In this document: positions 59,695 through 64,000 of the stretch, one piece after another
How positions within the stretch are numbered: position 1 is the first letter of the stretch
How the letters are laid out: each line of letters begins with the position of its first letter
NCBI RefSeq assembly: GCF_001677475.2
Contig: NZ_CP015229.1
DNA length: 64,000 nt
Strand: one strand, 5' to 3'
Source: Escherichia coli
GTDB taxonomy: Bacteria > Pseudomonadota > Gammaproteobacteria > Enterobacterales > Enterobacteriaceae
Notes under the pieces: generated by a model
Database searches by the model: none
Told to the model about the DNA's origin: nothing
The model's input: only the letters and a program-made list of their open reading frames with translations
Position numbers and translations under genes: made by a program

Positions 59695-61209
59695 TCAGGC
59701 AACTGCCTGGCTGACTTTAGGCATCGCAAGGCTCAGTGCCTGACGCTCATCTGCCTGCTCGTGTAACAATTCACCGGCGATTTCGCCTTCCCGCATCACC
59801 ACAATCCGGTCGGCAACGCCGAGGACTTCAGGTAAGTCGCTGGAGGCAAACAGCACCGCCACGCCCTGCGCTGCCAGCGCATAAATCACGTTGTAAATTT
59901 CATGCTTAGCACCAACATCAATGCCGCGCGTAGGTTCATCCAGCAAAATGACCTTCATCTCTTCCGATAACCAGCGGCCCAGAATGGCTTTTTGCTGATT
60001 TCCGCCTGAAAGATTCATGATCAGTTGCTCTGCGCCCGGCGTTTTGATGTTGAGCGAACGAATGTGGTGATCGGCATTGTTTTCTTCCCAACCGTTGTTG
60101 ATTACACAACCGCCGAGCACATGTTTGCGTCTGGCACTGATGTTGATATTGTCGCGAACGGAGTGCACAGGAATAATGCCTTCCGCTTTGCGATCTTCCG
60201 GGCAGAGCATCATGCCTGCGGCAATAGCGTGGCTCGGTTTACGAATATCGATCGGCTGTTGGTCGATATAAACCTGACCGGCGGTGATTTGCGTCCCGCC
60301 AAACATGCCTTTCATTAATTCGCTACGCCCCGCCCCTACCAGACCAAACAGCCCAACAATTTCACCACTGCGAACCGCCAGACTTATTGGCGTACGCACG
60401 CCTGGTGCTTTCACAGCATCAAGACGCAGGCGCTCCTCGCCATAACTACGCGGTTGCCAGCCGTAGATATCGCCAATGTCGCGCCCGACCATCGCCTGCA
60501 CCAGCGCGTCGTGGTCAACCTGCTGCATATCGGTAAAGGTTTTGACATAACGTCCATCTTTAAAGACAGTGATGGCATCGCTGAGGGCAAATATTTCTTC
60601 CATACGGTGAGAAACGTATAAGATCACCCGCCCCTCTTTTCGCAGTTCACGAATAACGCGGAAAAGATTGTCGATTTCGCGGGCAGAGAGGGAGCTGGTT
60701 GGCTCATCAAAGGCGATAATTTTAGCGTTACGAGCCAGCGCTTTGGCGATTTCAACCATCTGCCACTGACCAATGGAGAGATATTTCAGCGGCGTGTCCG
60801 GGTCAATATCCATACCAAGATGTTTAAGTTGTAAACCCGCCTCATAATTCAGCAATGAGCGATTCACAATGCCGCCTTTATGCGGCAGCTGGCCGAGATA
60901 GATGTTTTCCGCGACGGTCATTTCCGGCACGAGATGCAGTTCCTGGTAAATAATCGCCACACCCGCGTTAAGTGCTGCGGTCGTGTCGGAAAAGGACATT
61001 TCCTGCCCATTAATCACTACAGAACCCGTGGTTGGCGCATAGTTGCCGCTGAGGATTTTTAAGAGAGTTGATTTTCCTGCGCCATTTTCACCCATCAACG
61101 CATGAACCTGACCGGCATAGCAGTCAAAACTAATATCCGTCAGCGCCTTAACGCCGGGAAACGTTTTACCGATGCCGCGAAATGAGAGATACGGGGTAGA
61201 CTGTTGCAT
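59695..61209 (-). CDS. araG: L-arabinose ABC transporter ATP-binding protein (duplicated ABC domains)
   Basis: 504 aa from [20 protein letters not shown]; two Walker A motifs ([18 protein letters not shown]). Confidence 0.94.
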
Positions 61210-61278
61210 AACGTCTCCGTGAATCACTGGTCGTTCACACCCCCTCTGCATCATGCAGAGGGGAATTTTTCCGGCAAA

Positions 61279-62268
61279 TTACTTACCGCCTAAACCTTTT
61301 TTCTCCAGTTCTTCTTTAAAGTTGTCACGCGTGATCAGCACCACGTCGGTAACTTCGGTGAATTTGGTCGGTTCAACACCTTTTGCTACCCAGTTGTAAA
61401 GCATTTCGCTGGACTTATAACCATGTACGTCCGGGCTTGGCAACAGGGAACCGTAGAAGCCGGTTGCCTGTGCCTTAGACAGTTCGCTCACCGCATCCAC
61501 ACCGTTAATACCGATACCGATGATATCGGCCGCTTTAAAGCCCTGACCTTCCGTCGCGCGTACGCCGCCCAGCACGGTGCTGTCGTTCATACCGACGATC
61601 AGCCAATGTTTAACTTCCGGATGTTGAACCAGCATTGAGTTGGCAGCGTCAAATGCCCCGGGGATGTCGTTAGATTTGGTAGGTACCTGATAAATTTGTT
61701 TTTCCGGGAATCCTGCAGCTTTCAGCGCATCCATAGAACCCGTAGTACGGCGACGAGCCGTATCCAGTTCGTTGGAGGTAATCGCCATCACCGCGCTTTC
61801 TTTGACATCCCAGCCACGTTTCTGCATCTCTTTATACAGTTCCTGGCCCTGACGTTCGCCAATTTTGGTCGCCGCCATCATCACCAGAGGAACGGTATCC
61901 ATTGGCTTACCTTTGGCGTTAACAAACTGGTCATCCACGGCAATGACTTTCATATCGTAGCCACGCGCTTTCGCCACGATGGCAGAACCGAGTTTGGGGT
62001 CCGGAGTACAAATAACGAAACCTTTTGCGCCACTGGCGGCCAGGCTGTCGATCGCGTTCAATGTTTTTTCGCCATCCGGCACGGCAATCTTAATAACTTC
62101 AAACCCTAAATCCTTCCCGGCTTTATCGGCAAACTTCCATTCGGTCTGGAACCACGGCTCTTCCGGTTGCTTCACCAGGAAACCGAGCTTCAGGTTCTCC
62201 GCCATAGCGGATTGTGACATAACGGCTGCCAGACCAATGGCTGCCAGGGCTTTAGTAAATTTGTGCAT
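61279..62268 (-). CDS. araF: L-arabinose periplasmic binding protein
   Basis: 329 aa with signal peptide MHKFTKALAAIGLAAVMSQSAMA. Confidence 0.95.
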   Translation of the reverse strand: MHKFTKALAAIGLAAVMSQSAMAENLKLGFLVKQPEEPWFQTEWKFADKAGKDLGFEVIKIAVPDGEKTLNAIDSLAASGAKGFVICTPDPKLGSAIVAKARGYDMKVIAVDDQFVNAKGKPMDTVPLVMMAATKIGERQGQELYKEMQKRGWDVKESAVMAITSNELDTARRRTTGSMDALKAAGFPEKQIYQVPTKSNDIPGAFDAANSMLVQHPEVKHWLIVGMNDSTVLGGVRATEGQGFKAADIIGIGINGVDAVSELSKAQATGFYGSLLPSPDVHGYKSSEMLYNWVAKGVEPTKFTEVTDVVLITRDNFKEELEKKGLGGK

Positions 62269-62516
62269 GGTTCTCTCCAGCTTTAGTGTCGTTTTGTGTA
62301 GGGCAAAAACGAATGACTTTCGTTAAATTAATCGGAAAACAAAGCATTACCTTTTAACTAAAAGATAAGTGACCGTGTTGACATAGTTTTAGCGAGAAAT
62401 TAATTCTCCATAGGAGAGCAATATCACATCGCAGAATTACAGTGAGAACGTGCATAAATTTAGCGGGAAAAGACATAAGGGAAAGCCAATTTGTCAGACA
62501 AATTGTCGAATGCACA

Positions 62517-62545
62517 GCAGATTAATCCATAAGATTAGCTTGGAA
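62517..62545. promoter_or_regulatory. AraC binding site (araI-like half-sites) in the araFGH promoter region
   Basis: TTAATCCATAAGATTAGCTTGGAAATCCT; the ATCCATAAGATTAGC core closely resembles araI1 of araBAD as I recall it; about 250 bp upstream of the araF start. Confidence 0.5.
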
Positions 62546-63064
62546 ATCCTTGTTGTCTTTGGTACCCATGCGGGATGTCTTCTTTTTAACCACTCAATAG
62601 GCCGCATTACCTGGTGTTGAGTTTTTGAAATGGTGTAATAACCGCAACTCAAAGATGTGGAAAATGCGCGTCATTCATTTCGCCATTAATTATCACCGTG
62701 CTCATTAATTAACAGAACACGTATACTGAGAGCCATATCGCAAAAATGAAAAAACGTTTTAAAAAATCATTGCTTCATCATGAATTCAAATACACCTATT
62801 AATATCAACAAGATACAAAAAGCACCATCATTAAAATTCATTGCAGTTACATTGATTTCATCAATGAAATGTAAAAATATATAAACTTGATGATTTAAGC
62901 ATTTTCTTATACCCGTTCAGACGTTATTCTTATTTCAGATCATCGTCAGAATTGACTCCACGATCACATTTCGGACCGGCAGAAAGGAATTATTCTGCAA
63001 ACAGTAATTATGGTGTTTTGATTTATCTTGCACCTCTCCACTTCTGGATATAAGGATATTAGGT

Positions 63065-63568
63065 ATGGCAACCGCTGGAATGCTTCTCAAACTCAACTCT
63101 CAAATGAACCGCGAGTTTTACGCATCCAATCTCTACCTTCACCTGAGTAACTGGTGTTCTGAACAGAGTCTTAACGGCACCGCCACTTTCCTTCGCGCCC
63201 AGGCACAAAGTAATGTGACCCAAATGATGCGCATGTTTAATTTTATGAAGAGTGTCGGCGCTACCCCCATCGTTAAAGCCATTGATGTTCCCGGTGAAAA
63301 ACTGAACTCTCTGGAAGAACTGTTCCAAAAAACGATGGAAGAATACGAGCAACGTTCAAGCACGCTGGCGCAGTTAGCCGATGAAGCGAAAGAACTGAAT
63401 GATGATTCAACCGTCAATTTCCTGCGCGATCTGGAAAAAGAACAGCAGCATGATGGCCTGTTGCTGCAAACCATTCTTGATGAAGTGCGCAGTGCGAAAC
63501 TTGCGGGTATGTGCCCTGTGCAGACCGACCAACATGTTCTGAATGTCGTGTCGCATCAGCTGCATTGA
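63065..63568 (+). CDS. ftnB: Ferritin-like protein FtnB
   Basis: 167 aa; [31 protein letters not shown]. Confidence 0.93.
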
Positions 63569-63610
63569 TCATACATCGGCGCTAATGCATTGCGCCGATG
63601 AAGTTTTTGA

Positions 63611-63648
63611 GAAACCGCTGCCTCATCTTTTTGAAGCAGCGGTTTTTT
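63611..63648. terminator. Bidirectional rho-independent terminator between ftnB and yecJ
   Basis: AAACCGCTGC-CTCATCTTTTTGAA-GCAGCGGTTTTTT; overlaps the yecJ stop codon. Confidence 0.75.
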
Positions 63649-63898
63649 AATGGGATTCGCCCTGTGGGGTAAACTTGAGTTCAATCAGCGCGATGGCTTT
63701 TTGGATTGCCCGCATGGTGACCGGGTCTGCGGCGGCGGGATGGTTAGTAAAGTTGATATTCTTCAGCTGGCTGGACATTTTTTCGCGAACTTCAACGGGC
63801 GCGATTACATCGAGAACATCCAGAATTTGTTTGATAACCAACTGGCAAGCAACCACATCAGAAACCAGTTCCTGATCGGCATTCAGCGGCTGGGACAT
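63647..63898 (-). CDS. yecJ: DUF2766-family small protein
   Basis: 83 aa; [24 protein letters not shown]. Confidence 0.85.
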
Positions 63899-64000
63899 CG
63901 TAAACTCCTGATAGCATTTTGAAAGCCGTTATAGTAGCGGCTTCACATCTTCAGCGATAGTCACATCCACCGTCATCAGGACACAAAAAAACCTGCCGGA

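Follow-up and report, generated by a model that had tools for sequence, protein, structure and literature searches.

Two divergent regulatory regions, with probable lineage-specific filler between them, in the araF-ftnB intergenic region of an Escherichia coli genome

The closest described counterpart of the AraC sites discussed here is araI of araBAD, which consists of two 17-bp half-sites, I1 and I2, arranged as a direct repeat with starts 21 bp apart and containing TAGC and TCCATA boxes. At pBAD, I2 overlaps the −35 element and points at the gene, and AraC loops between half-sites at araBAD. For the ferritin-family genes, the upstream region of E. coli ftnA is AT-rich, silenced by H-NS and antagonized by Fur. 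Validated E. coli small proteins of fewer than 50 amino acids, such as AzuC, provide a third point of reference, as they include short ATG-initiated intergenic frames. The araFGH promoter itself, described by Hendrickson, Stoner & Schleif (1990) and Johnson & Schleif (2000) and as summarized in PMC2893085, has an order of sites reversed relative to that of ParaBAD, with CRP beside or overlapping the −35 element and AraC upstream. In Salmonella, H-NS binds and represses ftnB, which is de-repressed in the absence of hns, as cited in PMC3212961. In E. coli, ftnB is a known member of the Cpx regulon, and CsrA footprints have been reported on its leader in a study whose RNA is described as 'consisting of 127 nt of the 5′ UTR' (PMC6686035).

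We focus here on how the DNA between araF and ftnB compares with these systems. Within the window (the whole stretch of 64,000 nucleotides that was analysed), araF occupies 61279–62268 on the minus strand and ftnB occupies 63065–63568 on the plus strand, leaving an intergenic region of 796 bp (62269–63064). An earlier claim of a 796-bp gap is thus confirmed from the gene coordinates, and the length in K-12 is identical. The neighbouring araG also lies on the minus strand in the window, as does yecJ (63647–63898). Compared with K-12, the gap is 97.7% identical with zero indels, so that a K-12 coordinate is obtained by adding 1,923,860 to the window coordinate. Of 5,426 complete E. coli genomes, 5,417 contain a match to it, with identities of 96.7–98.6%. 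Existing annotation has little to say about this DNA. The RefSeq record NC_000913.3 holds zero annotated features inside the gap, an Rfam scan of 61000–64000 at E ≤ 1 gave zero matches, and a scan of 62100–63200 for consensus sigma-70 promoters gave zero promoter-like sites; the same scan gave two terminator-like hits, both weak, one of which falls inside the araF promoter. For comparison between genera, a scan with AraF provided 80 araF loci, which represent about 30 genera of enterobacteria, and for variation within the species, 11 E. coli sequences provided 50 variable sites in the gap. These sites are very unevenly placed, with three in 62269–62468, 46 in the 450 bp of 62469–62918 and none in 62919–63064.

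The best explanation, and one that we regard as quite probable, is that the gap consists of two divergent regulatory regions with lineage-specific filler between them. The 285 bp on the araF side (62269–62552) would form the araFGH control region, the 200 bp on the ftnB side (about 62865–63064) would form the ftnB promoter and leader, and the stretch between them (62553 to about 62860) would be non-coding DNA found only in Escherichia, at a position where most other Enterobacteriaceae carry a gene of the DJ-1/PfpI family. The locus is an ordinary one, and is largely already known.

As a minor observation on the strain itself, none of the 5,426 complete RefSeq E. coli genomes has an identical gap, the closest being that of strain KE55 at 98.6%, and the substitutions private to the window include those at 62318, 62374, 62540, 62593, 62615, 62792 and 62797. 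The flanking proteins are close to those of K-12, FtnB being 100% and AraF 99% identical.

On the ftnB side, the transcript start can be placed from published primers. The insert of the SP6 forward primer used in PMC6686035, GATCATCGTCAGAATTGACTCCACG, corresponds to 62938–62962 and the reverse primer to 63040–63064; the ftnB start used in that study is thus 62938, and the published start and leader are hereby placed on the sequence. The resulting 5′ UTR (62938–63064, plus strand) is 127 nt long and is the leader on which CsrA represses translation; its four GGA motifs are all found between the primers. A −10-like hexamer, TATTCT, lies at 62925–62930 on the plus strand, 7 nt upstream of the start, and an alignment of 18 sequences from Escherichia and Citrobacter shows it to be kept as TAT.CT. 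Further upstream on the same strand, at 62871–62885 and centred at about −60 from the start, is a CpxR-like box, GTAAAaatatATAAA, which agrees with GTAAA-N5-GTAAA at 9 of 10 positions, is the top match to this pattern in the gap and is kept across Escherichia and Citrobacter. Membership of ftnB in the Cpx regulon is consistent with this box being a CpxR site, although the box is assigned here by its likeness to the consensus. The conserved blocks upstream of the start in the same 18 sequences are TGTAAAAA..TATAAAC (62870–86), TTTTCTTATA and TAT.CTTATTT; the first of them corresponds to the CpxR-like box.

These blocks bear on the AT-rich tract that the first-pass annotation had placed at 62700–62940 and for which it had no assignment. 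The tract itself is borne out, with a GC content of 0.23–0.30 in 100-bp windows over 62700–62949, against 0.33–0.42 in the rest of the gap and about 0.5 in the flanking genes. Its lack of an assignment no longer holds for the third proximal to ftnB: the conserved promoter blocks, together with the absence of polymorphism in 62919–63064, indicate that roughly 75 bp at the ftnB end of the tract (about 62865–62938), with the conserved CpxR-like box and directly abutting the published start, are ftnB promoter. For the remainder of the tract, the statement stands. Scans of the gap for Fur and FNR boxes gave nothing above the maxima from shuffled sequence. In having a long AT-rich stretch ahead of a gene of the ferritin family, the locus resembles E. 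coli ftnA and Salmonella ftnB, but unlike the Fur-antagonized ftnA, the gap has no Fur box above chance, and Fur is without effect on an E. coli ftnB′-′lacZ fusion carrying the whole gap region.

Inside the ftnB leader, the best match to the CRP consensus in the whole gap is found, AATTGACTCCACGATCACATTT at 62950–62971, with 15 of 22 positions and a perfect right half. It corresponds to +13 to +34 of the leader, and its GATCACA is kept in Citrobacter.

Between the two regulatory regions, from 62553 to about 62860, lies an Escherichia-specific spacer that grows AT-richer towards ftnB and that we read as fast-evolving non-coding DNA with no conserved reading frame. BLAST against the 80 araF loci detected no homologue of the spacer outside Escherichia, and local alignment of the spacer with the equivalent regions of eight other genera gave scores at the level of shuffled sequence only. 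Phage collections contained zero matches to the spacer and plasmid collections no true ones, the 'plasmid' hits being either very large replicons or E. coli chromosomes with a wrong label. Among Escherichia species, no other part of the gap is conserved as little as the spacer, which is highly diverged between them, and the 450-bp segment that accounts for 46 of the 50 variable sites includes it. Other genera look quite different at this position. In 50 of the 80 loci (seen among loci L008–L082), a gene of 185 amino acids of the DJ-1/PfpI type (Pfam PF01965; TIGR01383, named 'DJ-1 family glyoxalase III') separates ftnB from araF; it is encoded on the araF strand, and its end is about 30 bp short of the distal AraC site described below (for example, L019:3125–3682). 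Truncated or frameshifted copies occur in Citrobacter sp. R56, in a Citrobacter metagenome-assembled genome and in Leclercia adecarboxylata. In all Escherichia species sampled, on the other hand, the gene is absent with no remnant, and tblastn found no remnant of it in the E. coli gap. That Escherichia lacks the DJ-1/PfpI gene of other Enterobacteriaceae and has fast-evolving AT-rich DNA instead is mildly new.

The spacer is not uniform. A few short islands in it, such as the CATTAATTA repeat and CATCATCATGA, are conserved among Escherichia species; proteins could bind there, in which case some of the spacer may have a function.

In the repeat, CATTAATTA occurs twice, 20 bp apart, at 62684–62712 (CATTAATTAtcaccgtgctCATTAATTA), and this arrangement is largely conserved among Escherichia species.

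The alternative to filler that survives best is that the AT-rich spacer is a functional silencer, with H-NS nucleating at 62700–62900 and spreading over the ftnB promoter until Cpx or another signal relieves it; the spacer may, in addition, insulate ftnB from the arabinose-induced araFGH promoter. We consider this possible but on the whole doubtful. By analogy with Salmonella ftnB, the AT-rich half of the spacer is probably coated by H-NS and would extend the ftnB upstream region, and the two readings overlap, differing only in the claim of a selected function. The GC content of 23–30%, the H-NS binding and de-repression of Salmonella ftnB cited in PMC3212961 and the conserved islands all speak for a silencer. 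However, most of the tract diverges fast even within E. coli and cannot be aligned beyond the genus, other genera have a gene at the same position, and the high-affinity H-NS motif TCGATAAATT has zero matches inside 62700–62940.

On the araF side, the first-pass annotation had singled out an araI1-like motif about 250 bp upstream of araF and pointing away from it. This motif, ATCCATAAGATTAGC, lies at 62525–62539 on the plus strand, at a distance of 257 bp from where the araF ATG starts, and is an exact 15-nt match to araI: the oligonucleotides for araI of araBAD given in PMC2893085 contain the same 15 nt. A search of the 64-kb window that tolerated up to two mismatches gave this one match, with 0.07 expected by chance. 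It forms the I1/I2 junction of a longer, conserved direct repeat at 62515–62552 (plus strand), made up of cAGCagattaaTCCATA (62515–31), the linker agat and TAGCttggaaaTCCttg (62536–52). The two half-sites are 17 bp each with starts 21 bp apart, and they score 9/10 and 8/10 against TAGC-N7-TCCATA; the composite pattern is matched without any mismatch at a single place in the 64-kb window. Of the 80 loci, 53 carry the composite exactly and 70 with at most one mismatch, always oriented away from araF and about 248 bp from the ATG. Column by column, the AGC and TCC(ATA) boxes are conserved at 90% or more, and the bases between them are variable. Variation within the species follows the same pattern, the AraC contact positions of the distal site being invariant in the 11 E. 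coli sequences and 62522, 62540 and 62546 varying. BLAST homology to genera other than Escherichia runs from the araF ATG to 62552–62555 and then stops, at the outer edge of the I2-like half-site; the conserved region therefore ends with this outer AraC site, at whose I1/I2 junction the motif lies. These data support the motif being part of a genuine, deeply conserved and reversed AraC site of the I1-I2 type. The AraC interpretation is correct, and it was already known; what is gained is the confirmation of a textbook regulon element and of its conservation in reversed orientation across about 30 genera.

A second AraC-type direct repeat lies closer to araF, at 62440–62477 on the plus strand, again pointing away from the gene. 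It is made up of cAGTgagaacgTGCATA (62440–56) and TAGCgggaaaaGACATA (62461–77), 21 bp apart, which score 7/10 and 8/10. The proximal composite is exact in 64 of the 80 loci and within one mismatch in 77, with the orientation 'away' throughout, and here too the positions of the boxes are conserved and the intervening bases variable. The earlier suggestion that the AraC site fits the unusual araFGH geometry therefore holds, except that it concerned only one of two tandem sites.

Between the proximal pair and araF, a CRP-like site is found at 62410–62431, centred at 62420.5; on the araF strand, its core reads TGTGA-tattgc-TCTCC. Agreement with the CRP consensus extends to 14 of 22 positions, and the core (TGTGATnnnGCTCTC; TGTGAtattgcTCTCC) is exact in 76 of the 80 loci, which makes it a candidate for the CRP site of the promoter. 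A further CRP-like sequence at 62365–62386, containing aGTGAccgtgtTGACA (62368–83), was considered and rejected, as it is unconserved in comparison with TGTGAtattgcTCTCC. A putative −10 element, CGCTAAAACT at 62385–62394, is read on the araF strand (minus); it is exact in 51 of the 80 loci, within one mismatch in 70 and fixed at about 117 bp from the araF ATG. If the CRP site is taken as class II (−41.5) and combined with this −10-like element, the araF start is expected near 62379. The 5′ UTR (62269–62379, minus strand) would then be about 110 nt long, with a conserved Shine-Dalgarno region.

Moving away from araF, the araFGH control region would begin with the 5′ UTR of about 110 nt, followed by a weak −10 element and then by a CRP site of the class II type at 62420.5; beyond these come the AraC sites at 62440–77 and 62515–52, whose half-sites are all on the plus strand and face away from the gene. 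The pBAD/pE geometry, in which I2 lies over the −35 element and points to the promoter, is not seen, since the half-sites point away from araF and lie upstream of the CRP-like site; araFGH is on record as an exception in this respect. The distal site shares with araI the 15 contiguous bases of ATCCATAAGATTAGC and a place in the arabinose regulon. Unlike the site at pBAD, it has its centre about 155 bp ahead of the predicted start and faces away from araF, and it is separated from the polymerase by the proximal AraC pair and the CRP-like site. Judged from the layout of the sites, the reversed geometry speaks against contact of the pBAD type but not against AraC binding. Arabinose-bound AraC would make no −35 contact of the pBAD kind here, and it most likely aids the binding of CRP and RNA polymerase at the adjacent site. 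This arrangement agrees with the published araFGH promoter, in which CRP lies beside or over −35 and AraC upstream: the fragment described as 'including all known regulatory elements' in PMC2893085 ends at window position 62645, all elements identified here fall within it, and nothing contradictory was found.

A different role for the outer site is conceivable, in which it acts mainly as a partner of the proximal site in repression by looping without arabinose, as O2 and I1 do at araBAD. We think this improbable. Two AraC-type sites, 75 bp apart from centre to centre and both strongly conserved, would suit such a loop, but both are complete pairs of adjacent I1-I2 half-sites with the 21-bp spacing of the arabinose-bound configuration, and an isolated O2-like half-site is not seen.

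The two AraC pairs are separated by a 15-bp palindrome of the 7-1-7 type, ATTTGTCAGACAAAT, at 62489–62503, whose conservation between two AraC sites is also mildly new. It is conserved, symmetrically, in most of the 80 araF loci, with a non-palindromic variant, TATGTATGATGA, in some genera. Its core, TTGTCnGACAA, has the T.GT...AC.A shape typical of GntR/FadR-type operators, and we know of no assignment for it. It could be an operator through which a repressor or a co-activator controls the high-affinity uptake of arabinose. A bolder account of the locus would thus give the araFGH region an extra, undescribed input through ATTTGTCAGACAAAT and, held more weakly, would make the Escherichia-only AT-rich filler a selected H-NS silencer of ftnB; we give this account little credence.

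The conserved part of the araFGH region continues into the predicted 5′ UTR, where the block GTAATGCTTTGTTTTCC (62349–62333) is strongly conserved across genera. The small RNA Spot 42 targets araF, and UCCGAUUA at 62328–62335 would be complementary to it. PMC3141248 reports a second araF promoter recognized in vitro by the sigma-S holoenzyme, and GTAATGCTTTGTTTTCC could be the −10 region of that promoter or, instead, a region of pairing with a small RNA.

The spacer also contains the 18-codon ORF of the first-pass annotation, at 62746–62802 on the plus strand and encoding MKKRFKKSLLHHEFKYTY followed by a stop. Both the frame and its lack of a Shine-Dalgarno sequence are found as described: the only purine-rich run upstream of the ATG is GAGAG, ending 12 nt before it, and hence there is no usable Shine-Dalgarno sequence. 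As a candidate gene, however, the ORF does not stand, and we judge it to be a chance reading frame. That it might instead encode a young, E. coli-specific micropeptide, or act as a translated regulatory upstream ORF, is very unlikely. The 18-codon ATG frame is indeed intact in the window and in nine of the ten other E. coli sequences, but in the 11 sequences, all seven variable codons are nonsynonymous, with zero synonymous-only, and in O157:H7, codon 8 has changed from TCA to the stop TAA. None of the Escherichia examined outside E. coli has the ATG. In the nearest such lineage, Escherichia sp. MOD1-EC7003, it is ATA and the frame is broken, and E. albertii, E. whittamii, E69 and SCPM-O-B-8794 lack it too; across these five lineages, the codons in its place are ATA, CTA, CTG or others. 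The reading frame is thus unconserved in related species, the outcome that the first-pass annotation had named as its refutation. Nor is the size of the ORF unusual: eight ORFs of 18 codons or more that start with ATG occur in the gap, where shuffling of the sequence yields 6.0 ± 2.1, and eleven further ORFs of 12 codons or more within the same 400 bp vary likewise. There is no promoter-like site nearby, and the ORF is absent from the annotation of NC_000913.3. Among the rows listed in the small-ORF tables of Stringer 2021, there is no entry for 19865xx–19868xx, araF or ftnB, which is weak evidence, and supplements of a microproteome preprint contain no relevant entry. Like AzuC, which is encoded two genes away, the ORF is a short ATG-initiated intergenic frame; unlike small proteins of that type, it has no Shine-Dalgarno sequence, frame conservation, purifying selection or annotation, and its peptide has no hydrophobic or otherwise recognizable character. 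Removing this candidate is useful for annotation because 18-codon frames are expected by chance in AT-rich spacers.

Least likely of all, to the point where we give it almost no weight, is that the distal AraC site drives an arabinose-inducible divergent transcript over the spacer and the small ORF or into ftnB: the I1-to-I2 direction does run towards ftnB, with the I2-like half facing ftnB as I2 faces araB, but there is no −10-like hexamer at the pBAD-equivalent distance past I2 and no promoter-like site in 62100–63200, the sequence past 62552 is not conserved, the ftnB start is 386 bp away, and in 50 of the 80 loci, the converging DJ-1/PfpI gene ends about 30 bp from the site, which shows that its orientation is kept where there is no divergent target.

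Finally, the araFGH control region itself contains an ORF of 53 amino acids, at 62354–62515 on the minus strand, which spans the CRP and AraC sites; a similar ORF is open in Citrobacter amalonaticus (L013:3748–3909). Its openness reflects conserved regulatory DNA upstream of the predicted araF start, and not a gene.
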